Positions 3,015-64,000 of a stretch of 64,000 nucleotides of DNA are shown here, piece after piece (position 1 is the stretch's first letter; every line of letters begins with the position of its first letter). The stretch is taken from the NCBI GenBank assembly GCA_052327205.1, contig CM126209.1, positions 61,752,001 to 61,816,000 on the forward strand. The letters run 5' to 3'. The stretch is from Somniosus microcephalus (Eukaryota). The translations under genes were made by a program, and so were the position numbers. The notes beneath the pieces are model-generated. The model made no database searches. It saw only the letters and a list, made by a program, of their open reading frames with translations, and was not told where the DNA came from.

Positions 3015-3031
3015 TGAACTTTGTGTGAACT
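3015..3031 (-). promoter_or_regulatory. Proximal DR5 retinoic acid response element (R1-type) of cyp26a1
   Basis: TGAACT ttgtg TGAACT (AGTTCA n5 AGTTCA on the minus strand), in the CAATTAAAGA...AATT context known from vertebrate Cyp26a1 promoters; GC box at 2975-2980 and TATA-like TTATAA at 3074-3079. Confidence 0.92.
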
Positions 3032-3202: not shown

Positions 3203-3391
3203 ATGGTCTTATTTACACTTTGTGCTACTTTCTTGTGCACTTTCGTGCTGCCGCTGTCGCTCTTCCTCGCCGCGGTGAAGCTGTGGGAAGTTTACTGTAT
3301 AAGTGGAAGGGACCCCAGCTGTGAAAACCCCCTCCCTCCGGGCTCCATGGGGCTGCCGTTCCTGGGAGAGACTCTCCAGCTGGTCCTGCAG
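3203..3391 (+). CDS. cyp26a1: cyp26a1 exon 1 (coding part)
   Basis: ATG at 3203, MVLFTLCATFLCTFVLP...LPPGSMGLPFLGETLQLVLQ, donor CAG|gtgagg. Confidence 0.95.
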
Positions 3392-6300
3392 GTGAGGAGG
3401 TTCACTTACTTCAAAATAACCCGACTTTTTTTTTCCAAATCTAGGGGTCATGTCAAAATCCGTGACTTCCTCTGAGAGAAACCGAGCGCGAAGCGGTAAC
3501 GTTGACAATAAGAATAGAAAATATATTTTTTTAGAAAAGAGAGGATGAGAACAAATTGCAGCCTTGGGAGAGAAAACAGGTAGGCAGTGCTCAGCTCTGA
3601 TCGAGGCGTCCAGCATCTTTGGAGAATTGCATTCCAGTGTGTCGTCATTAATAAGAGCGCAGGATTTAACAGCAAGCGTCGCTGTGCAGAAAACAACCGC
3701 AACTTGGCTTGTTTGAATGGCTGCCAAACGGATTTATTTCGCAGCCTTGCTGGAAGTTTGATGCCGGGCTGTCACTGGTATCAAGCTGCAGCGGAAGTAT
3801 TCTAAAAGCAGTTTAAACTATTTCCTCCGCAGATTTAGGAATCGCACAAATTATGCAGCAACCTGAACACTAACCCCCAGAAGTGTCCCCCCCCTCGCCC
3901 CGAGTATTAATCGCACCTAACCGATTAACCTGCATCCATTTACAGAGATACAAGTTTCTTAAGATGAAAGTACGAAAGTACGGCCACATCTACAAGACGC
4001 ATCTTTTCGGGAGCCCGACTGTGCGGATCATGGGAGCTGAGAATGTGAAGCACATTTTATTAGGGGAACACAAGCTGGTGTCGGTGCAGTGGCCCGCCTC
4101 GGTGAGGACGATCCTGGGAGCCGGCTGCCTGTCCAGCCTGCACGATTCCGAGCACAAACACAGGAAGAGGGTGAGTGCACACTTTCCACATCTGACCCAT
4201 TAACCGAGAAAGGTTGCTGTCTAAAAGACTTCGTGAATCAAGCGTCTTGCAGTTTGCAAACTTCCAGCCTTTGAATCTCAGGCTGAACCAAGAGTAAGAA
4301 TAGGAAATCCCACAGAATCATTGGCATTAACCCATTATTAGAAAAGTCCAATTAGGCAGTGCTGGAGTCAAAAGTGCTCATTTAATAATCAGTTGCATAT
4401 TACATCAATTTTAAAAGTGGCTTCTTTTAAGTTCTTTTAAAAATACAAAACTGAGTTTATTTTCAATGTAGAAAGAGGAATAGGTGCTGGTTTAATCAGA
4501 TTTTTAAAAAATTTTAATAGGTGATTTTGAAAGCTTTCTCCCGAGAAGCTCTCGAGAACTACATCCCAGTGATGGGCGAGGAGATCAGGGCCGGGGTGAG
4601 GCGATGGCTGGAGAGCGGCCCTTGTGTGCTGGTTTACCCCGAGATGAAGCGCCTCATGTTCGGGATCGCGATGCGGATCCTGTTGGGCTTCGAACCCACG
4701 CAGACCAGCCCGCAGACACAGCAGCAGCTCATTGAGGCTTTCGAGGAAATGATTCGCAACCTCTTCTCACTGCCCATCGACGTGCCGTTCAGCGGCTTAT
4801 ACCGGGTAAGGTCCGGAGTCAAGATAACAGGGAGGGAGGGGATTGGGGCCGGGTAAATGGTGTGCAGGTTTTTGCTCCAATAGTAACTAAAGCACAGGAG
4901 ACTGAAAAATGTAACCTTTAAATGGCGGAGTGACACTGAGTGTGCCGTTATTTGGTGACAGGGGCTGAAGGCGAGGAATGTTATCCACGCAAAAATCGAA
5001 GAGAACATCAGGAAAAAGGTGGCGAAACGCGAGGCCACGGGCCAGTTCAAGGATGCTCTGCAGCTTCTGATCGAACACTCAGAAAAGAGTGACCAACCCC
5101 TGCGTTTACAGGTAAAGCTACTGCCCCGCCCCTGCCCCAGAACATCACCCCACACCGCTGCCCCTGCCCCAGAACACTGCCCCTGGACATTAACCCAGAA
5201 CACTGCCATTGCCCCACAACGTTGCCCTTCCCCAGATCATTACCCCAGAACACTGCCCACTCCTGCCCATTGCCCCAAAACATTGCCCTTCCCCAGAACA
5301 CTGCCCCTACCCCAGAACATTGCCCTTCCCCAGATCATTACCCCAGGACACTGCCCCTGCCCCAGAACATTGCCCACTCCTGTCGATTGCTGTAGATCAT
5401 TGCCCTTCCCCAGAACACTGCCTCTGGACATTAACCCAGATCACTGCCCCTTCCCCAGACCCAAACCCAGAACACTGCTCAATAACTAACACAACTCCTG
5501 ATTTTACACCGCAGTTGAACAAACTTAATATACACCATTTTTTTAAAGCAACGACGGGTTAAATGTTTTTCTTTCTTTAAAAGCTTAAATTCCAGTGAGG
5601 AGTCTCACTCCGGCTTCCTTCATCCTGCGGCAATGTGCAATGTGCAATGTCCAGATGAGAAATGCCATCGCCTCCCTGCACACAGGGCCCTGCTACCCGG
5701 TGGCTTCACGGGTGCAAATTGCAGAACATTTGCAGCAGTGGCAATCTTTGGGAGCATTGACGATCTTCAAGCGCAGTCTCTCTGCTGCAGGAGGTTCAGT
5801 GCCGGCACTCTTGGAACGTGCCTGATGTGTGTTTTGTTTTCTCTCCCTTTTTATTTGAAGGAGCTGAAGGAATCTGCCACCGAGCTCCTGTTTGGAGGAC
5901 ACGAGACGACAGCCAGCACCGCCACCTCCCTGGTCACTTTCCTGGCCCTGCATCCTGAAGTGCTGCAAAAAGTCAGAGGGGAATTGCAGGAGCAGGTAAG
6001 GCATCGCATACCAGTCAGAGCTTACTTTGCACATTCCCAGCCTCACATCCATCCTTGATCGGATTCCTTGGGTTGCACGGATTGCAACAACCAAAATCCA
6101 TTAGCAGCAAATTGAGAGTAATTTAAGCACCAATCCCGGATTTTGTTTTTGGTTTTAAATGTGGCTTCTCAATGGATTTGCAGGGATTACTGAGCAGCGA
6201 CGCTAAAGAGAACAAACAAATCACCATTGAAGTCCTGGAACAACTTAAGTATACCGGAAGCGTCATCAAAGAAACTCTTCGACTGAGTCCCCCGGTCCCC

Positions 6301-7799
6301 GGAGGATTCCGCGTGGCCCTAAAGACCTTCGTGTTAAATGTAAGCGGAAATTTGAGAGTCAGAAATAAGTGTTCTGTAAAACATTGGAGCCGTTTGAAAC
6401 CTTTACACCAGTCACCCTAAAAGCAATTCCTTGTGCACATTTAGAAAAAAAAATCAATTATCCCACAATTGATTTTACAATACCCTCCAGATTTTGTAAT
6501 GTCTAATCGTAAATATCGCTAAATCAGAAACAATATCCAATAGGTTTTAAGCGGGTCTCCACCACTTTGCATGGGCAACAATTAAGCATTCCTGCAGCCG
6601 TCGCAAGCTACAAACGATTTCCCTCTGCAGTATCAAGCAACATGAGAATCTAATTAAACCGCTCGTAGTTCAGCGATTGAGATTACACCAGGAGGAATCA
6701 TTGGCAGCACTATGGGATGGCACTGGTAGTCTAGTTCCACCCCTCCAGCCTTTTCGGTCCAGATATTGTGGGGGGGGGGGATGTCTGTGAACGTGTTTTG
6801 ATTGAACCCATTTAGGTTTAAACGATCGGATCGATTGGGAAGATTCTGGACAGCAAGAGTTCACAAGGTCATTTACATTAAGAGGCCGATAACATCGGAT
6901 CATTAATTCGCAGCCAATTTCATGCCCATCCTTTAGAGCCCACAGCCTACTAATGGGGACTGTATATGGCTCCAATAACCCCTCAGATTAGGAATGACCT
7001 GGGTACAGTCGTCTAATTTCAGACATTTTTAAAAATAGAAATCTGATTTAGAAGTGAAACAATTCACTTAAATTCCAAGGTGTATGATAGTAAATGTCAC
7101 AATCCTTACAGCAGAATTTATAAAACGTGCTGGATTGTAGAAACATAAGGAGGAGTAGGCTATTCGAGCCTGCTCCGCCATTCAATATGATCATGGCTGA
7201 TCCTTTATCTCAATACCATATTCCCGCTCTCTCCCCATACCCCTTGATGCCGTGTGTGTCTAGAAATCTATCGATCTCCTTAAGTGACTTGGCCTCCAGA
7301 GCCCTCTGGGGTAGAGAATTCCACAGGTTCACCACCCTGAGTGAAGAAATTTCTCCTCATCTCAGTCCTAAATGTCCTACCCCGTATCCGGAGACTGTGA
7401 TAAATTGTAGATAAATATAATACGTTAAAATAATCAAGTCAATTTCATTTCCAGGGATATCAGATACCAAAAGGCTGGAATGTTATTTACAGTATCTGTG
7501 ACACACATGATGTAGCCACAAATTTCTCGAAGAAGGACGAGTTTAACCCGGATCGCTTCATGGAGGGCTGTCCGGAGAAAGATTCCTGCAGATTCAGCTA
7601 CATCCCATTCGGCGGAGGCTCCAGGAGCTGTGTGGGCAAAGAGTTCGCCAAGATCCTGCTCAAGATCTTCACCGTGGAGCTGGTCAGGGCTTGCGACTGG
7701 GAACTTTTAAACGGGCCTCCTACAATGAAAACCAACCCCACCGTATACCCAGTGGACAACCTGCCCACAAAATTCACACCGTTCCCATACACAATCTGA
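3203..7799 (+). CDS. cyp26a1: Cytochrome P450 26A1 (retinoic acid hydroxylase), complete 7-exon gene, 494 aa: join(3203-3391,3946-4170,4521-4805,4962-5111,5861-5995,6184-6339,7455-7799)
   Basis: All introns GT-AG and phase 0; exons sum to 1485 nt with no internal stop. Motifs: N-terminal membrane anchor, PPGSMGLPFLGETL, I-helix FGGHETT, K-helix ETLR, NPDRF and heme-binding FGGGSRSCVG. Seven-exon layout, proximal DR5 RARE and adjacency to MYOF fit CYP26A1 rather than 26B1/26C1. Confidence 0.96.
3946..4170 (+). CDS. cyp26a1: cyp26a1 exon 2
   Basis: tttacag|RYKFLKMKVRKYGHIYKTHLFGSPTVR...HKHRKR|gtgagt. Confidence 0.95.
4521..4805 (+). CDS. cyp26a1: cyp26a1 exon 3
   Basis: taatag|VILKAFSREALENY...NLFSLPIDVPFSGLYR|gtaagg. 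Confidence 0.95.
4962..5111 (+). CDS. cyp26a1: cyp26a1 exon 4
   Basis: tgacag|GLKARNVIHAKIEENIRKK...DALQLLIEHSEKSDQPLRLQ|gtaaag. Confidence 0.93.
5122..5480 (+). repeat. C-rich minisatellite in cyp26a1 intron 4 (~16-19 bp units, core CCCCAGAACA(C/T)TGCCC)
   Basis: Roughly 20 degenerate tandem copies; generates the spurious Pro-rich ORFs in the ORF track. Confidence 0.9.
5861..5995 (+). CDS. cyp26a1: cyp26a1 exon 5 (I-helix)
   Basis: ttgaag|ELKESATELLFGGHETTASTATSL...ELQEQ|gtaagg. Confidence 0.95.
6184..6339 (+). CDS. cyp26a1: cyp26a1 exon 6 (ExxR motif)
   Basis: ttgcag|GLLSSD...LEQLKYTGSVIKETLRLSPPVPGGFRVALKTFVLN|gtaagc. Confidence 0.95.
6858..6871 (+). promoter_or_regulatory. Candidate DR2 RARE in cyp26a1 intron 6
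   Basis: AGTTCA ca AGGTCA, perfect DR2. Confidence 0.5.
7139..7398 (-). mobile_element. CR1 LINE 3' fragment in cyp26a1 intron 6
   Basis: Reverse complement resembles the 3' end of the CR1 at 31575-35935 (GATCAGCCATGATC...GAATGG...CCTACTCC). Confidence 0.8.
7455..7799 (+). CDS. cyp26a1: cyp26a1 exon 7 (heme-binding Cys, stop)
   Basis: ttccag|GYQIPKGWNVIYSICDTHD...FSYIPFGGGSRSCVGKEFA...PFPYTI-TGA. Confidence 0.95.
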   Translation, partial: GYQIPKGWNVIYSICDTHDVATNFSKKDEFNPDRFMEGCPEKDSCRFSYIPFGGGSRSCVGKEFAKILLKIFTVELVRACDWELLNGPPTMKTNPTVYPVDNLPTKFTPFPYTI

Positions 7800-8950: not shown

Positions 8951-8975
8951 TGACCCCATGAACCTTGCCTAACCT
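8951..8975 (-). promoter_or_regulatory. Candidate DR2 RARE with adjoining degenerate DR5, downstream of cyp26a1 and inside the MYOF 3' UTR
   Basis: TGACCC ca TGAACC ttgcc TAACCT. Confidence 0.45.
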
Positions 8976-9112: not shown

Positions 9113-40667
<31,555 letters not shown>

Positions 40668-46661: not shown

Positions 46662-48050
46662 CATCACCTTCTTCGGCAGTCCCTTGGAACCGAGGATGAC
46701 TTGCTGCCACATTAAAAAGGAGTTCTCAGGTGACTGATGAGTCCAATGCGGGACCTACAGTCTGTCACAGGTGGAGCAGACGGTGGTTGAAGGGGCGGGT
46801 GGGTGGGGCGCTTCGGTTGACGTGCACTCCTTGCGCTGCCTGCGCTTGGCTTCCGCTTGCTCCCGGCGAAGAGACGAGGTGTTCGGCACCTTCCCGGATG
46901 CTTCACCTCCACTTTGTGCGGTCTTGGGCCAGGGATTCCCAGGTGTCAGTGCAGATGTTACACGTTTTCAAGGAGGCCTTGAGGATGTCCTTGAAGCGTT
47001 TCCTCGGCCCACCTGGGCTCTCTTGTTGTGCCGGAGCTCAGAGTAGAGCGCTTGTTTTGGAAGTCTCGTATCGGGCATGCGGACAATGTGACCCGTCCAT
47101 CGGAGCTGATTGACTCAGAGCTTCGATGCTGGGGATGTTGGCCTGAGCAAGAACACTGACGTTTGTGCACCTATCCTGCCAATGGATTTGCAGGATCTTG
47201 CAGAGGCAGCATTGGTGGTACCTCTCCAGTGCTTTGAGGTGCCTGCTGTACATGATCCATGTCTGTGAGGCATACAGCAGGGCAGGTATCACTGCTGCCC
47301 TATAGACCATGAGCTTAGTGCCAGGTTTGAAGTCCTGGTCTTCAAACACACTCTTCCTCAGGCGACCGAAGGCTGCACTGGCACACTGAAGGCGGTGTTG
47401 GACTTAGTCGTTGACGTCTGCCCTTGTTGACAGTAGGCTCCCGAGGTATGGAAAGTGGTCCATGTTGTCCAAGGCCTTGTCGTGGATTTTGATAATCGGG
47501 GGGGGCAGCACTGTGTGGCAGGGGCAGGTTGGTAGAGGACCTTTGTCTTACGGATGTTTAGTGCAAGGCCTATGCTCTCGTATGCTTCGGTGAAGGTGTT
47601 TACGATGGTTTGGAGTTTGACCTCAGTGAGCGCAGACGCAAGCGTCGTCTGCATACTGTAATTCGATGAGACGACCTTGGATCTGGACTGGAGGTGACGG
47701 AGGTTGAACAGTTTCCCGTTTGTTCTGTAAATTAGCTCCACTCCAGTGGGGAGCTTATGGAGGGTGAGGTGGAGCATTGCAGCAAGGAAGATTGAGAAGA
47801 GCGTTGGTGCGATGACACAGTCTTGCTTGACCCCGGTTCGTACGTGAATTGGGTCTGTGGTGGAACTGTTGGTCAGGATCACGGCTTGCATGTCGTCGCG
47901 AAGCAGGCAGAGGATAGTGACAAACTTTTGAGGGCAGCCGAATTTGAGGAGGACACTCCACAATCCCTCACGGTTGACAGTGTCGAAGGCCTTTGAGATT
48001 AAAGGCAGCCATGTACAGTGGTTGGTGCTGTTCCCTGCATTTCTCTTGGA
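46662..48050 (-). mobile_element. RTE (BovB-like) LINE, 3' half
   Basis: WSVLLKFGCPQKFV...TGVKQDCVIAPTLFSIF...GLALNIRKTKV, TKLMVYRAAVIPALLY, CRSRIGLISHLRT, (GAT)n-like tail. Confidence 0.88.
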
Positions 48051-48064
48051 ACAATAAAATGATA

Positions 48065-50940
48065 AAGAACAAAAAGGAGGCTATTCAGCCCATCATGCCT
48101 GTGCTGGCTCTTTGGTAGAGCTATCCAATTAGTCCCACTCCCCTGCTTTTCCCCATAGCCCTGCAATTTCCCCTCCCCCCAAAGTATTTATCCAATTCCC
48201 TTTTGAAAGTGACTATTGAATCTGCTTCCACCATTCTTTTAGGCAGTGCATTCCAGATCACAACAACTCCCTGTGTAAAAAAATGTTGCCTCAGGTCACT
48301 TCTGGTTCTTTTGCCAATCACTTTAAATTCATGCCCTCTGGTTCCTGACCCTTTTGCCACTGGAAACTGTTTCTCCTTATTTACTCTATCAAAGCCACTC
48401 ATGATTTTGTGCATCTATCAAATCTCCTCTTAACCTTCTCTGCTTCAAGGTAAACAACCCCAGCTTCTCCAATCTCTCCACATAACTGTAGTCCCTCATC
48501 CCTGGTACCTCGCCAAGGCCCTGACAACCTTCCTAAAAAGTGTAGCGGCCAGAATTTAACAATACTCCAGCTGAGGCCTAACCAGTGTTTTATAAAGTTT
48601 TAGCATAACTTCCTTGCTTTTGTACTCTATTCCTCTATTAATGAAGCCAAGGATCTCGTATGGTTTTTAACAGCCTTCTCAACTTGTCCTGCTACCTTCA
48701 AAGATCTGTGTACATACACCCCCAGGTCTGTGTTCCTGCACCCCCTTTAAAATTGTATCATTTAGTTTATATTGCCTCTCATTCCTCCTATCAAAATGTA
48801 TCACTTCATACTTCTGTTAAATTTCATCTGCCATATGTCTGCTCATTTCAAACACTATTTGCCTTTAATAAATCAGTGCTGTCTTTCATTTATTAGCCCA
48901 TACTTCTCCAAATGGCAATTCCTTTTGTCCCGGATTGTTGACTCAAAAGGCTGCAATTTTCCTTACCTTGGCAGGCGATGTCGGTGGCAGGTCCTGACCC
49001 CGCTGCTGGCTCCAGCCCGCTCTGTAGAAGGAATTTCGCCCGCCCAGCACATTTCCCGGTCCAACTGAAGGAAGTGGGGCGGAGGAAGTCATTTGATGGC
49101 ACGTTACCAGCCGGTTTCCTTAAAGGGACCATGCACAAATTTACTTTGACATTTGCGCAGTGTGCTAAAGCATTGAGGTGCATGGCTGCACCCAGGCTCT
49201 TCCATGACTCCCTCCATATGCTTCGAGGTTCTCTTCCCTTCCCATGGGTGGAAGACACCTCCCCAGGAGACCAATGCAGCCTGGTTGCACAGGAGGACAC
49301 AAGCAGGGATGTGGTCAGGAGGACCAGATTGCATTGGCGCAAACCTTTCAATGATCTCAGTAGATCACAAAACGTTACTGCAAAGCCACACTCAACTTCA
49401 TCCTACTGTGTCACTCATCACATCCCCATCACTCTGCCTTCCCTACCCTACTCCTGCACATCCTACTCTCACCAACTTACCTTGCACCTCCACCCTCCCT
49501 CTCTAGCTACATCATCACTTCTCCATCTCACTAGCTACCCCTCACACTCGCCCTCATCCTAGTCCAATCATACCAACTAACACACAAGGGTAGGCACTTG
49601 TGTGTTTTAGCCAATGTTCATGTGAAGTTTGTTAATGTGCTGTCAAACATGGAAATCTTTATTTTCAACACTTTGCATTCTTGGACAGATTTGTGTGCAC
49701 CTTTGGAAGTGGCTTAGTGAGTTGCAATGAATGGCGAGACAATGGTACCCCCCACAATGGTGATGAGTGTGAAAGGAATGGCTTGGGTATTGTAGGGATA
49801 CTTTTTTGTTGGTGTGGGGTGGTGCCAACCTGTAGTATCATGTGGCAACCAGGGTGTTCAGCACCAAGTAAATGTAGCCATGGTGAGGCCATCCCTGGCA
49901 GCAATGTGGTCGGGTGCTGATGCCCTCGGTCCTGTGCAGCATCAGGTGATTGCGGAAAAAGTTGGCGTGGTTGTTGGTGCTGCTGGTGACGTGGCTGATT
50001 GTTGTCAGATTCTGAGGGCGAAGGTGAGAAAGTATAAACCCTACCCATGCCGACGGAATAGATGGCTGGTGAACTTGAGATGACAGGAGCAACGTCAGTG
50101 GTGAGAGGTTGTTCCCATGAGGTGACACTGGATAGAGAGTTTGCTCCAAACACTTGCAACCTGCATAAAGCTTAAATCAGTCTTCCAAATGCAGAAAGCA
50201 ACAGCTTCTGAGCTTGGAAAATAAACAGAGAGAGGGGAGCTTTTATAGTACATTTCAAGCTGTCAAGTAATGAGCAGATTCCATGGCCATTCAACTCCCG
50301 CCCAGCTTAACAGACATGATCCCCGAGCAGCGTGGACCCCATTGGCGAGCTGGTAAATTCTAAAGGGGAGCTCAAAATTGTTGTTAATCCTCTGTTAACA
50401 AGGTCATAATGACTCGAATTGCCTCCCTCGCTGCTGCGTGCCTGATCTGCTCAGTGCAGGCAGACCTGATATTTGGAAAAGGCGCGTGGTGGCGGGTTCC
50501 CAACCCGCTGTCAAAGAAAAACACTTTCCTACTCGACCACCGATCGCGCCGGAAAATTCCCCCCAAAGTTTCCCCACCAGACGTTAGGCTGACTGGCATT
50601 AGTTGCCGGGTTTAATCCCTCTCCCCTTTTTTCTTTTTAAAAACAGGGGTGTAACATTTGCAATCCTCCAGTCCTCTGGCACCACCCCCATATCTCAAAA
50701 GGAGTCAGTCATTATGGCACAGAAGGAGGCCATTCGGCCCATCCCGGCTCTCTGTAGAGCAATCCAGTCAGTCCCATTCCCCCGCTCTATCCCCTCTAGC
50801 CCTGCAAGTTTATTTCCCCTCAAGTGCCTATCCAATTTGGAATATTGTGGCCAAAGCCTCTGCAATTCAACCCTTACTTTCCCCAGTAATCTAGGACGAT
50901 GCATCCAATCCGGAGTGGGTGACTTTTCTACCCCAACGAG
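48065..50940 (-). mobile_element. CR1 LINE fragments (48065-48948 and 50565-50940) interrupted by a Harbinger element
   Basis: TRGHEFKVIGKRTRSDLRQHFFTQGVVVIWNALP; host reads ...GACTCAAA|GTTTCCCCACC... across the insertion. Confidence 0.75.
48949..50564. mobile_element. PIF/Harbinger-derived DNA transposon, internally deleted
   Basis: Imperfect TIRs GGCTGCAATTTTCC / GGAAAATTCCCCCC, 3-bp AAA on both flanks, decayed Myb/SANT-like ORF (APRLF...VAQED...RTRLHWRKPFNDL). Confidence 0.7.
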
Positions 50941-55810: not shown

Positions 55811-57813
55811 AAAAATCCCAATTCAATTTAGTTTGTTTCTGATGAAATTTCAGCCAGTCATGTGCAAGTGACAAATTTGCATATACATCCTTAACACAAT
55901 GTGTGATGGACAAGATAATGTTAGATGCAATATATGTCTATTTCTCAATACAAAAACTATTTGATATTCTTGTAGATTAGCATAACTCATGACTAGTCAG
56001 GAAAAACTTAGTGGGCGTAATAAGCTCCAATAGCAACCAACCCACCTACCCAGAAAGACCAGGTATGCATCCTCATCCCACCATCAAGGATTTTCTCTCC
56101 CTTCCTCTGCTCCCCAAACCCAAACTTAGCAAGATCTGTCTCCTTTTCCAACCCTCTCAAAAGTTCTCTGCCTTTCTTCTTGCTACTGCCCGTTAACTGG
56201 GAATCTATTCCCTTTATAGACTCTCCCTACTCCTCCACAAGGCGCATGCATGTACATTTTCTCCAATTTTCCAAGTTGAGAGATTGATCATTAAAAATAA
56301 GATAAAATATAGCCCAATGTTTTCCCTTAAACTAACTCAAAACAATCATTTTAATGAAAATCAATATAGGATATAAATAAATGCTGTTCTGTACAAGACA
56401 ACTTCACGTAATACTATTCTAGTCAAATGATTGCCGGTATTTTCTCCCTCCTCCACTTTTCCTCATACTCCTTCACTTATTGCTCTCTTCACTAATTTTC
56501 ATTTGCCCTGTCACTCCTCATTGAGCAGGCTAACATCAAGCCCAGTGAGCAGGCCACTGAACAGCAATTGTACAGAACAAGAGGGAGCACTATGCAGTGT
56601 TGTCGGACTTTTTCCAACACCTTGGCGGGGGGGGGGGGGGGGGGGGGGGATGGTGACTAGGAGTAAAGAGCATTTCTTGGAAACAGCAAGCCAGAGCATG
56701 CAATGTGAATGGTCAGTCCCGCTACCAATCTAAAAAAACCTGACGTGTAATGCCTGCCCTACTCCAAAATGTGCTGGCTTTTGTTATGCTACCATCTAAA
56801 GTTTGGAGTCTATGGAGTGACTGCCGAGTGATGCTGGTACATACACGCAGTTGCAGTCTCCGAACGAGCCGGGCCTCTTCAGGGGAGGTGATAGCAAACA
56901 GTGAGCTATGGAAAGCCTCAAGAACTCAAGTACCAGGTACCTGAAATCCAGGCAGACCTCCAGCAGGAAACATTGTTAGAGATTTTAAGCACAGAAAAGG
57001 GTGTATTTAATAATTGTGCGTGTTACAAAGTTGATTTTTTTTGTACATTGCCCTCATTATTGACAAAAATTATAAACTTCATTAGTTCCTTTCCAGTTGT
57101 TATATTAAATAGCAACTGTCTGTTGAATCTGGACAGTGGTATTCGTACCTCCTTGATTAGTAATGTTCATACCAACTTGCTGCTTGTTCAATGGTAGATT
57201 GCCTACTTGCTCAAGTACCATTTGTTACTGTTTTATGACTAGGACACAAACAAATAAGGTGCAGTTTGACAAATACTTTCTGGTAATTCCAGAAGTGTGA
57301 CCAATGCTCACTAGAAAAAAAATTATATACATCTCTTTATATCTCAGTCAGTTCTCTGTAGCAATGCTCAACAGGGAGCTGGGAGTGTGTAACGGGGATA
57401 GTGTGACAGAAAGCAAGTGTGATAATTACAGGAAGTGTATGCTACACGCAGAATATGGAGATATATATTTTGACAGAAAAATTACTTGTATTGGTTTCAA
57501 ATGATAAGTTTCAGAACCATATATATAGTTATTAGCCCACAGCAACCAATACAAGTAGCTGGTATTTTCTGAATGCTTATATTTATAAAAATATAAGCCT
57601 CATTTCTTTGACCCATTCACGAACAGATCAATAAGCCTTCAAAGTATTTACAAATGGTCTTACTGAGTTAAGAAGTGCAACCCGCAGCAAACTCTGGCTT
57701 GTTCCAGTAAACTCCCAGCCCTGCAGCATGTGAAATCGGATAGGAAGCTTTGACTGTCAATGCTGCTGTGACTTGTCCTGGGGAAGCCTCCAATATGGGG
57801 GGGGGGGGGGGGG

Positions 57814-58079
57814 GGGTCAAACAGAGTTCAGTGAACTGATGAACCAACACAATATCAGCTTTCCCAAGGTACTCCTTTCACTTATCTCCAATCCCTGCTC
57901 GTTATTAAACTGATGGCTTACGCTAAGTAAATAAAAGAACATTTTCCCCTGCCAAATGACCCAGACACGGACCCGTACGCAAGATTCTGCCGACAAAAAA
58001 CTTTCTGCTGGGTTGATTTAGACCGTTGTGCAGCGACAAATACGAATAGGAGTTCAAAAGTTCAGATGAACCATGAACT
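57814..58079. promoter_or_regulatory. Candidate RAR/RXR enhancer: two cassettes of four nuclear-receptor half-sites
   Basis: GGGTCA aacag AGTTCA g TGAACT ga TGAACC (57814-57845) and AGTTCA aa AGTTCA ga TGAACC a TGAACT (58051-58079). Confidence 0.65.
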
Positions 58080-59730
58080 TTGCCATTTCACAGCAGGCTA
58101 TTCCACAAATATAGCCAAAAAGGGAAAAGTGGCTAAGTCCCTCAGGGACTGATGAAACTTGTGGCCTATAGGTAAAGTAAGTTTGTCAACAAAGTAAGTG
58201 TCTTTCCTCCCAGGGAGTTGGGGAGGGAGGGAAAAGGGAAAATAACTATTGGAGAGCTAACTATGGACTAATAGGGTAAAGTTATTTGCTTTTAGTCCTT
58301 CCATAGATTTGATCTGGATTTCTAAACTTCCTGCCCACATGCTCAGCAAGTTATCCAAAAGAGTCAGGTTTTGTATTTCTGCTCCTGCCTGCTCATCGCT
58401 GCAGCAGCATTCCTCTCCGCCAGGAACTTAGTGGAAAAATCAAAACAAATGGGTCATGACTTTCTGTATTTGCTTAAAGCTGAGCTGCATGTCATCCTGT
58501 GATGTGGCCTTGGCCCCAACTATGTAAAACAGTACAAAGCATAACTAGGTTGGGAACGATAACAAACATGTGCTGCATGTGCCTTTAACATTATGTGCTA
58601 TCAAGGAAATTACTCATTCAGGGTTTCAAAGAAATGAAAACACGCACATACTTTGACATCTTACTAATACCAAGACAGGCAGCTACAATCACCCAGTGGA
58701 AACAAAATCTTGCAAGACAAGCAGCCTAAAACCAATTTGTCAGTTATTAGACACAATTTACCATACTGGTGCCCCCAAAAAATAACATTTGCTTAGCAAA
58801 ATCCTAACAAGGCTTCAGGGAATAGTAATACTGTAGTACAAGTTACAAAAGCTTTTTTCCAATTAGATCCGAACAGGCTTCAAGTCCGACAACAGAATAG
58901 GCTATTCACAGTACTATAAAACTTGGAGGAGCAAAGGATTAGAAAAACTATAAAAGTGAAAGTTCGATGGGGTAGATACGGACCTCATGTTTTGAACCCA
59001 TCGGAAAGGAGAAGACTGCACCATAGTTGTGGGAAGAGAAGGTGGAAAAGATTGTGGACAGATTGCGGTTAGGTGGAAACTTATATAGAACACATTTAAA
59101 GATAGTCAGTACGCGCGCACACACACACTCGATTGTACTGCAGGTGAACTTATCCCTCTTCAGATAGTTGGAGATGGTAAGCTACATTAAGATGCAAGAC
59201 CTAGAGGCTGAAATTCATACGCTCATTAATTTTAGCAAACAAATAAAATGAGCAAAAGGATTTTCAGCAGCCAAATGTTAAGTTGTAGCCCAACAGACAC
59301 CATTCAAGGCTACCTTTGTGAAGGGAGCTCGGAAGCTGCCACAGACAGCTAGGAATGACCTTCACCTGACTGGGGGTGAGAGAATAGCTCGTTCATCACT
59401 AGTAAATTACCATGAAATATAAACTTTGCTAACCTTTGTTTAGTAATAGGCTCCTATGGTATTCATACCAAGGGTAAACTTAAGTGCATTCTACATAGTA
59501 GAGGGGAGCCCCTCCTCACATCAAACACAATGGAACCTACATTCCACTAAAGAAAGGAGAGGAAGTAGACAAACTGAACTATTAATAGGCTGTGACAAAT
59601 GCAATTCCGATTCAATTTTAGGGGGAAAAAAAAGAGTGCAAGGAGAATCCCATCACTGTGTCATGCAATGAGAGGGCTGCAACAATATTTTCAGTAGACT
59701 ATAAATACAGAACCACAACGAGCTAGTATT

Positions 59731-62700: not shown

Positions 62701-64000
62701 CAAATGCCATTGTTGTTCCAATATGCAACCAAGCATAATCCAAATGTGGCCATATTAGTGGCCAGGATTGGAAACACGATTGAAGAAAACATCCTGGCCC
62801 ACAGCAGTGTTCTGGAGCCAGAACTGATCCATGATAACTTATTTTGAACATTGGGACACACTCATTTACACCCAAAATGCTTCTGAATCACACTCACTGA
62901 AGAGATCATCCTTAGCCAAGAGCTACAAATTCAAATCTTGTTTCCAGATGTTCAGACTGCATGGAAATCAATCAGGATTGGACCAACTAGAACACATTTC
63001 ATTCACAGCATCAGCTGCTCAATGGCAGCTTCCATTGTGGTAAATCACTATGTATAATGGATTGAAGTGGTGCATTTGCCGATGCCAAAATCATGGTAAT
63101 ACTCTTGCTGAGGTACCTAGCCTTGTACATAGAGGAAGAATGGTATTGCATTACAAAAATTTACTTCACACAATTAGATAAAAACTTTGGCAAAAGCTGT
63201 TGGCATGACCAAGTCTGTTTTGTCTTGAGGTAGCAACACTAAAGCACAGGTAGACAAACTCTATGCCAATAAAGCTAATATGGGTGGCAACTGGTACTCT
63301 ATCAGATTGCCCACAGCTGGAATGAGACATCTTTTTAGGTGATCATAGCAATAGGTTGGAGGATGATTTTTGCAACAAGAATGGAAAGACTCCTTAGATC
63401 GTTCAATAAATGATCCATCACAGGCTTATCCTCAGAGTTCAGCCATTGTTGAAGTACCATTTCTTGGTTGGGTTCAGAAATCTTTGCAGTGTATACATGA
63501 AGTTATGGCGAGCCCAACTCCACCAATATTTTGACACGAGTGCTGAAATAATGAGTGATAATTCCACGACTAGATGTCCCAATCAGGCGCATTGTAATTG
63601 GAGCTTAAAAGGATGCATGTCATTTCTATCAACTATTTCAGAACCGATTGCAATTAACTTTCAGCTCAACCTAACCATATATATTTGAAGACAACAAATT
63701 TTTCTCAAGACATTTTAAAAATGATACTCATTCCCTTGCAGTTAAGTTTCTAATTCTATCTAGCACTGTGCCAGACAAAAAGTGTGATTCCCACAGAAAA
63801 AGAGAAGTTATGATCTTTCTTTTATTCATTACACACTGCCACAAACAGAACCCCGTAACAGGACACCTGCTTGTCTTCCTGTTGGGCAGAGAGCAACACA
63901 ACAGGCATAATATTGGAAATTTGAATGAAGCGTTTTTATTTTGAATAAGTAGGCATTTTGTTGGGTGCCATCCACCACATACTTATTTGAAGAACATCAA

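Follow-up and report, generated by a model that had tools for sequence, protein, structure and literature searches.

A probable orthologue of the mouse distal Cyp26a1 enhancer, carrying two four-half-site RARE cassettes, in a MYOF intron of the shark Somniosus microcephalus

The window analysed here is a stretch of 64,000 nucleotides from Somniosus microcephalus (assembly GCA_052327205.1, contig CM126209.1, positions 61,752,001 to 61,816,000). It includes two compact cassettes of four RAR/RXR half-sites each, located in an intron of MYOF and 54.6 kb from the start codon of cyp26a1. We consider it highly probable that these cassettes form the conserved core of a long-range RA-responsive enhancer of cyp26a1, whose probable mouse orthologue is the distal enhancer about 91 kb from the Cyp26a1 promoter. 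A long-range RA enhancer for cyp26a1 had been proposed in the original prediction. The proposal is now supported through this probable orthology with a mouse element for which RAR/RXR binding, promoter contact and a knockout have been described. Enhancer function in the mouse was thus known already, while deep conservation, the four-half-site layout and the intronic position were not found in the literature searched.

Organization of the cassettes

All eight half-sites are perfect. They begin at 57814, 57825, 58051 and 58059 on the forward strand and at 57832, 57840, 58067 and 58074 on the reverse strand (Table 1). The composition, the forward-forward-reverse-reverse geometry and the spacers first described for both cassettes proved exact, and the distance between them, given as about 205 bp, is 205 bp by count. 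With RAREs defined as direct repeats spaced by 1, 2 or 5 bases (PMC4446430), the four direct repeats (DR5, DR2, DR2 and DR1) all have canonical spacing. A ninth, unpaired half-site, absent from the earlier description, occurs at 57957 between the cassettes. The window includes 171 half-sites in total, equivalent to 0.71 expected per 266 bp (rather than the approximately 0.5 per 270 bp first estimated), and nine are present. The CpGs said to be retained between the cassettes are reflected in an observed/expected ratio of 0.75 in the element against 0.34 in the window, and the IR0-like site reported at 58451 is real and falls within a second conserved block. We do not present the cassettes as tandem duplicates of each other: their cores align and their flanks do not.

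Gene context

The cassettes are indeed hosted by a MYOF intron with GT-AG boundaries, some 55 kb from cyp26a1 as predicted, with cyp26a1 on the forward strand and MYOF on the reverse strand. The exon upstream of this intron lies just past the window at 64382-64470 and the junction is in frame. Ferlin C-terminal exons were identified on the reverse strand at 19.8-22.1 kb, their best homologues being myoferlins. The MYOF exons are collinear across 264 kb by tblastn, and no second copy of the last five was found in that interval. The coding regions of cyp26a1 and MYOF are only 12 kb apart in the shark. The last exon of cyp26a1 shares 94-96% identity with proteins bearing the name CYP26A1 in three sharks, and a second CYP26 gene, cyp26c1 by its position, is found 15-39 kb before the window begins.

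The promoter-proximal DR5 of cyp26a1 is probably the known R1 element, a name inferred from its position (the CYP26A1 promoter RAREs have been named R1-R3; PMC10350081), and another promoter-side DR5 starts at 1877. Perfect DR5 or DR2 pairs occur at 1877-1893, 6858-6871, 8951-8964 and 23825-23838 and also 3.2 kb upstream of the window. Each is single in 464 kb, and they are candidate counterparts of the known RAREs on either side, upstream and downstream, of the mouse and zebrafish genes. The 14-mer at 8951 also occurs near DYSF.

Several other features of these gene families were observed. The large MYOF 3′ introns carry LINE-type reverse-transcriptase/endonuclease fragments (24585-28364, 32839-35136 and 47361-48080). 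Three matches to a P450 last exon at G000:C8:143.2-143.5 Mb (L030, L031 and L033), with 45-50% identity to cyp26a1 and two of them with internal stops, may be CYP26 pseudogenes; they share the contig with cyp26a1 at a distance of 81 Mb. At least seven equal-score matches with 58% identity to a ferlin exon (G000:C7:239.5-241.5 Mb and contigs C218, C354 and C516) may be a multi-copy ferlin segment or assembly duplicates. The paralogous DYSF intron (3 kb) includes no half-site pair, and the 200 kb around it include no chain of three half-sites and no homology to the conserved block. An element of whole-genome-duplication age common to the CYP26B1-DYSF locus is therefore not seen in this intron and the surrounding 200 kb.

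Table 1. Features of the cyp26a1-MYOF window (positions in the window; "." denotes no assigned strand)
Feature	Position	Strand	Characteristics	Basis
cyp26a1 promoter-proximal DR5	3015..3031	-		sequence
cyp26a1, likely target gene	3205..7796	+	ATG at 3205; P450 exons 3874-7796	
MYOF, last five coding exons	19833..40614	-	between cyp26a1 and the element	
MYOF, terminal exons	near 40464-40614, 39372-39476, 23427-23627, 21949-22047, 19833-19988	-		tblastn
Host MYOF intron	40615..64381 (window ends at 64000)	-	fifth from the 3′ end; 23,767 bp; GT-AG	
Block conserved in four other organisms	57462..58830	.	near-continuous alignment in X18, X17 and X8; ~1.4 kb	
Deeply conserved core with both cassettes	57707..58128	.	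70% over 433 columns against L062, E=2e-50	
Match to mouse RARE-1 left guide, 5′ 13 nt	57768..57780	-	12/13	
Cassette 1	57814..57845	.	DR5 (+), IR1 centre, DR2 (-); spacers 5/1/2	sequence
Cassette 2	58051..58079	.	DR2 (+), IR2 centre, DR1 (-); spacers 2/2/1	sequence
Match to mouse RARE-1 knockout reverse genotyping primer	58083..58102	-	17/20; 3 mismatches	
Second conserved block, IR0-like site at 58451-58462	58407..58479	.	81% over 74 columns against L062, E=7e-12	

Rarity of the cassettes

To assess how often such clusters arise, a chain was defined as four half-sites with gaps of at most 5, and the window was compared with simulated Markov windows and random placements. The window has two chains. 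None was seen in 300 order-2 Markov windows, and one in 300 order-5 windows (generated by a model which had the window itself as training data); 20,000 random placements gave 18. The two cassettes are also the sole chains of four in the 264 kb around the locus.

The entire genome (6.45 Gb) was then scanned for forward-forward-reverse-reverse arrangements whose outer gaps measure 1-5 and whose centre is IR0, IR1 or IR2, an everted layout serving as control. Two IR1-centred sites were found, cassette 1 and one other, and a single IR2-centred site, cassette 2; the IR0-centred layout is absent from the 6.45 Gb. The cassettes thus represent two of the three IR1- or IR2-centred examples in the genome. 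Chance alone predicts about 0.35 sites per pattern genome-wide, and a pair within 300 bp is expected about 2e-8 times. The remaining sites are therefore at background. These are a DR1, IR1, DR1 cassette at G000:C36:81168577-81168603 (L035), in GC- and CpG-rich DNA adjoining a tandem repeat and with no gene identified within 3 kb, and one everted four-half-site cassette at G000:C8:18688343-18688375 (L057).

The 321-bp element has one match genome-wide, in a search which skips very common words, and no further copies within 464 kb. This agrees with the initial statement that no recognizable repeat is present and runs against a high-copy origin. No Rfam family matched 56500-59500 at E values up to 0.1, and a structured non-coding RNA is thus not supported. 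The cassette pattern was found in none of the prokaryote genomes and none of the viral contigs. Repeats bearing a perfect or near-perfect DR5 do exist in the shark: members of one family occur in the DYSF region and 78 kb upstream of the window (the L002-L021 region). Besides the DR5 at -78067 (relative to the window), 464 kb contain 36 more copies, and the family inflates naive RARE counts.

Conservation in a distant sequence

Metagenome contigs scanned with the cassette 2 pattern yielded 15 loci. Fourteen (L058-L061 and L063-L072) were set aside as unrelated, since they align with the element over the pattern itself only or not at all. These contain palindromes of GGTTCA/TGAACC units without CpG depletion, several with similar flanks, and are possibly a family of prokaryotic intergenic repeats. 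The remaining contig, L062, has a depleted CpG ratio of 0.42 and, judged from its sequence, looks like vertebrate host DNA. It aligns with the shark window over both the core and the second conserved block (Table 1).

Seven of the eight half-sites are identical in L062, with unchanged spacing. In cassette 1 the first three are identical, although the spacer letters have changed, and the fourth retains four of six positions; across cassette 2, 33 nt are identical, but L062 was selected by the pattern of this cassette. Identity amounts to 46/48 positions in half-sites compared with 6/13 in spacers and 248/356 in the rest of the core (p=1.8e-5). Since cassette 2 was itself the search pattern, cassette 1 provides the fair test of conservation and, taken alone, retains 22/24 positions (p=0.013). 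In this one distant sequence the half-sites are therefore conserved above their spacers and flanks. The cassette centres are 234.5 bp apart in the window and 233.5 bp apart in L062.

Two further observations concern this contig. A long G run at 57796-57816 abuts cassette 1 upstream in the shark. Since L062 has only four G at this place, the run is a recent expansion which spared the half-site. The segment L062:1-420, about 1 kb before the conserved core, is GC- and CpG-rich with apparent splice sites, has no shark counterpart and is possibly the start of a non-coding transcript.

Conservation in near relatives

Parts of 57600-58300 are contained in 24 runs (8 studies and 10 labelled organisms, with one more run unlabelled); the best-covering runs may include the sample from which the window itself derives. 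Four runs from four organisms were aligned to 56700-59100; runs with a small share of words in common (organisms D and E) are not counted as evidence. Within the block at about 57460-58830, substitutions amount to 6.0% in X18, 7.2% in X17 and 5.2% in X8. The left flank, on the other hand, aligns only in patches covering 42% (X18) and 26% (X17), with 13-14% substitutions. A stretch of 95 bp (58136-58232) is unaligned in X17. X18 is without about 16 bp somewhere in 57996-58076, a loss which could touch cassette 2, and we make no claim of strict spacing between the cassettes. No substitution falls in a half-site among 40 of the 287 substitution rows, with 57788-57826 (the G run) left out. Conservation in these four organisms is accordingly claimed for the block and not for individual letters. 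At its left edge, within 57387-57456, a stretch of 40-55 bp is matched by many unrelated contigs in all four aligned runs; this is a short relic of an old repeat.

Relationship to the mouse distal Cyp26a1 enhancer

A distal enhancer of mouse Cyp26a1, described only in 2026, occupies mm10 chr19:37,788,057-37,792,531 and includes two units, RARE1 and RARE2 (PMC13738024). According to the text of that study, it binds RAR/RXR in dependence on RAR-alpha/RXR-alpha, recruits p300, acquires H3K27 acetylation and contacts the Cyp26a1 promoter in 4C, and its deletion lowers Cyp26a1 induction, so that it is needed for full induction. An independent dynamic RAR/RXR ChIP-seq peak at mm9 chr19:37,863,886-37,864,386 (PMC4446430, supplement) converts, with an offset derived from published coordinates, to mm10 37,789,396-37,789,896, inside the deleted enhancer. 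The "downstream site" of Fig. 2E in PMC4446430 is not equated with the enhancer; it probably corresponds to the peak at mm9 37,776,768, immediately 3′ of the gene.

The two elements were compared through the published oligonucleotides, of which 4 of the 12 RARE oligos, chosen by eye, were examined. The RARE-1 knockout reverse genotyping primer has its sole match in the 64 kb next to cassette 2 (0.01 expected) and matches L062 at 18/20 positions. For the RARE-1 left guide, the 13 nt at its 5′ end likewise match only once in 64 kb (0.09 expected, for a length chosen after looking), 34 bp upstream of cassette 1. The order and strand of these matches, one on either side of the cassettes, are as expected. 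The other two oligos gave no match, and the chance of one among 12 oligos hitting the core is about 8e-4. Location agrees as well: both elements lie downstream of Cyp26a1 towards MYOF, at +54.6 kb in the shark and +90 to +95 kb in the mouse. On the strength of the two matching oligos, the shark element and the mouse distal enhancer of Cyp26a1 are very probably orthologous. The match of the reverse primer begins 4 bp past cassette 2, which, barring an insertion in the mouse, leaves the right guide no room there; mouse RARE1 therefore probably corresponds to cassette 1.

Likeness to the mouse enhancer therefore extends to the location on the MYOF side, the presence of two RARE units and the flanks recognized by two RARE-1 oligos. 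The mouse element differs in being intergenic, about 91 kb from its promoter and 106 kb short of Myof, whereas that of the shark is intronic. The sections of PMC13738024 that we consulted give no spacing, four-half-site layout or non-mammalian comparison, and the words "myof" and "intron" do not occur in its main text; its figures or PDF supplement may show the half-site layout.

Proposed mechanism and alternative explanations

The shark element most likely functions as its mouse counterpart does, for which each step has been shown: RAR/RXR heterodimers would bind the DR5, DR2, DR2 and DR1 pairs and ligand binding would lead to recruitment of p300. The element would then reach the cyp26a1 promoter by looping across the last five MYOF exons and would constitute a second feedback tier for clearing RA, beside the proximal DR5 sites at 3015 and 1877. 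Clustering of half-sites may raise occupancy or cooperativity and may also allow other nuclear receptors to bind. RXR occupies the 5′ half-site on DR2 and DR5 while RAR occupies that on DR1. With this polarity, RAR would face RAR across IR1 and RXR across IR2. Occupation of each cassette by two head-to-head heterodimers is putative, however, and is not supported in L062, where the fourth half-site of cassette 1 has been lost. In zebrafish, RARaa peaks at +33 and +48 kb from cyp26a1 count in favour of a downstream enhancer, and we do not claim that they are orthologous to the shark element.

The element might be an RA enhancer which in the shark mainly serves cyp26c1 or its host MYOF. The closeness of cyp26c1 and the location inside MYOF are compatible with this, as is the late induction of mouse Myof by RA (48 h in F9 cells), and Myof may be a second target. 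We nevertheless judge it improbable as the main function: the mouse deletion and 4C results tie the element to Cyp26a1 (PMC13738024), the mouse element stayed with Cyp26a1, outside Myof, and RA in zebrafish lowers cyp26c1 and raises cyp26a1. A cluster arising by chance, or a functionless transposon relic, is hardly credible. Isolated DR5 pairs do arise from repeats here, as the family at -78067 illustrates, and single four-half-site clusters occur elsewhere in the genome at about the chance rate. But the element is single-copy, it is 70% conserved in the distant, vertebrate-like L062 with its half-sites selectively kept, and two cassettes 205 bp apart are expected some 2e-8 times; the L062 conservation and the mouse oligo matches already contradict such an origin.

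The four-half-site layout could also have been kept for other nuclear receptors, as an integration or repression hub besides or instead of an RAR site. FXR/RXR binds IR1, and COUP-TF, TR2/TR4 or PPAR/RXR bind DR1 and inverted repeats. In cassette 1 of L062 the third half-site was kept although its DR2 partner decayed, so that DR5 and IR1 are preserved, which leaves room for an IR1-binding receptor; a conserved IR0-like site is present 370 bp away. Composite elements have been proposed as multi-receptor hubs (PMC4446430), and of the phase-I genes Cyp26a1 shows the strongest alteration in the liver of Fxr-null mice, an effect which the authors of that study themselves suggest to be indirect (PMC5045554). 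Given this, the dependence of the mouse element on RAR-alpha/RXR-alpha (PMC13738024), and a search of the literature which found no binding data for other receptors at the element, we regard a hub of this kind as improbable, while noting that it is compatible with an RA enhancer as an added layer.

Position relative to MYOF and the CYP26A1-MYOF synteny

In the mouse, Cyp26a1 ends 197.5 kb before the Myof 3′ end, and the enhancer is 106.5 kb outside Myof and 90-95 kb from the promoter. The shark element, in contrast, lies behind five MYOF exons, and its position relative to MYOF is therefore not the same. Since the enhancer is intronic in the shark and intergenic in the mouse, the order of the enhancer and the last five MYOF exons has changed in one lineage. 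Such a change could come about if MYOF, or its terminal exons alone, underwent duplication with subsequent loss, or if the enhancer moved; a local misassembly may also lie behind the shark order. MYOF does not appear as a bystander host of the regulatory block across lineages: the mouse element is outside Myof, and 117 proteins used as queries revealed no ferlin exon in 4,686 bases of L062.

These positions bear on the synteny of CYP26A1 and MYOF, which reaches lamprey (PMC10350081). It had been suggested that an enhancer hosted in the neighbouring gene could help explain this linkage. The explanation fails in the mouse: with about 106 kb between the Myof 3′ end and the orthologous enhancer, the latter cannot hold the two genes together. 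A more speculative proposal, which we think unlikely, is that the shark intronic state is ancestral. The mammalian CYP26A1-MYOF desert of about 200 kb would then be the remnant of MYOF introns left by duplication of MYOF (or of its last five exons), the copy on the CYP26A1 side losing its exons and keeping the enhancers. In the same proposal the cassettes, about 234 bp apart, would form a cooperative platform for several RAR/RXR dimers and give CYP26A1 a steep response to RA.

Comparison with known systems and significance

RAR/RXR peaks commonly contain composite elements in which more than two half-sites fall within 9 bp, and these resemble the cassettes in that respect (PMC4446430). As described in the parts of that source consulted, they favour DR2 or DR5 with DR0 and ER2, and a doubled arrangement of direct repeats opposed across an IR1 or IR2 centre is not among them. 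The RARE in skap1 intron 4, which serves the HoxB cluster, is an RAR site that is likewise deeply conserved and intronic to a neighbouring gene (PMC8608873). Fish and mouse both have it within the intron, and it consists of a single DR5-like motif, in contrast to the four direct repeats and the intronic/intergenic switch of the shark element. The promoter-proximal CYP26A1 RAREs R1-R3 share target gene and receptor with the element but are simple DR5 pairs within a few kb upstream. Among RAR sites conserved between zebrafish and mouse in Table S6 of PMC8608873, the cyp26a1 peaks (4 rows) are on the promoter side only. The enhancer treated in the consulted text of PMC8643627 is a different, upstream one, and that of PMC11040003, PMC12923738, PMC9049972 and PMC12776276 includes nothing specific to the element. 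No report of the element outside mammals, of its cassette layout or of its intronic position was found in the literature searched, which consisted mainly of the text of openly available papers.

In humans, rs61861121 (10:93,191,324), associated with Meniere disease (PMC13393102), and rs72815193, associated with glaucoma (PMC5814451), fall in the CYP26A1-MYOF interval. The mammalian desert of about 200 kb between these genes holds glaucoma, myopia and Meniere association signals. The element offers a site with which the human association signals in this interval can be compared.

Sharks and mammals diverged about 450 million years ago, and orthology, probable on present evidence, would date the mouse enhancer back to this split. 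The comparison also pinpoints the bases kept by selection and so indicates precise mutations for mouse or human cells; the mouse RARE1 deletion probably spared one four-half-site cassette. Finally, the switch between intronic and intergenic positions represents an unusual case in which an enhancer and five coding exons have swapped order.
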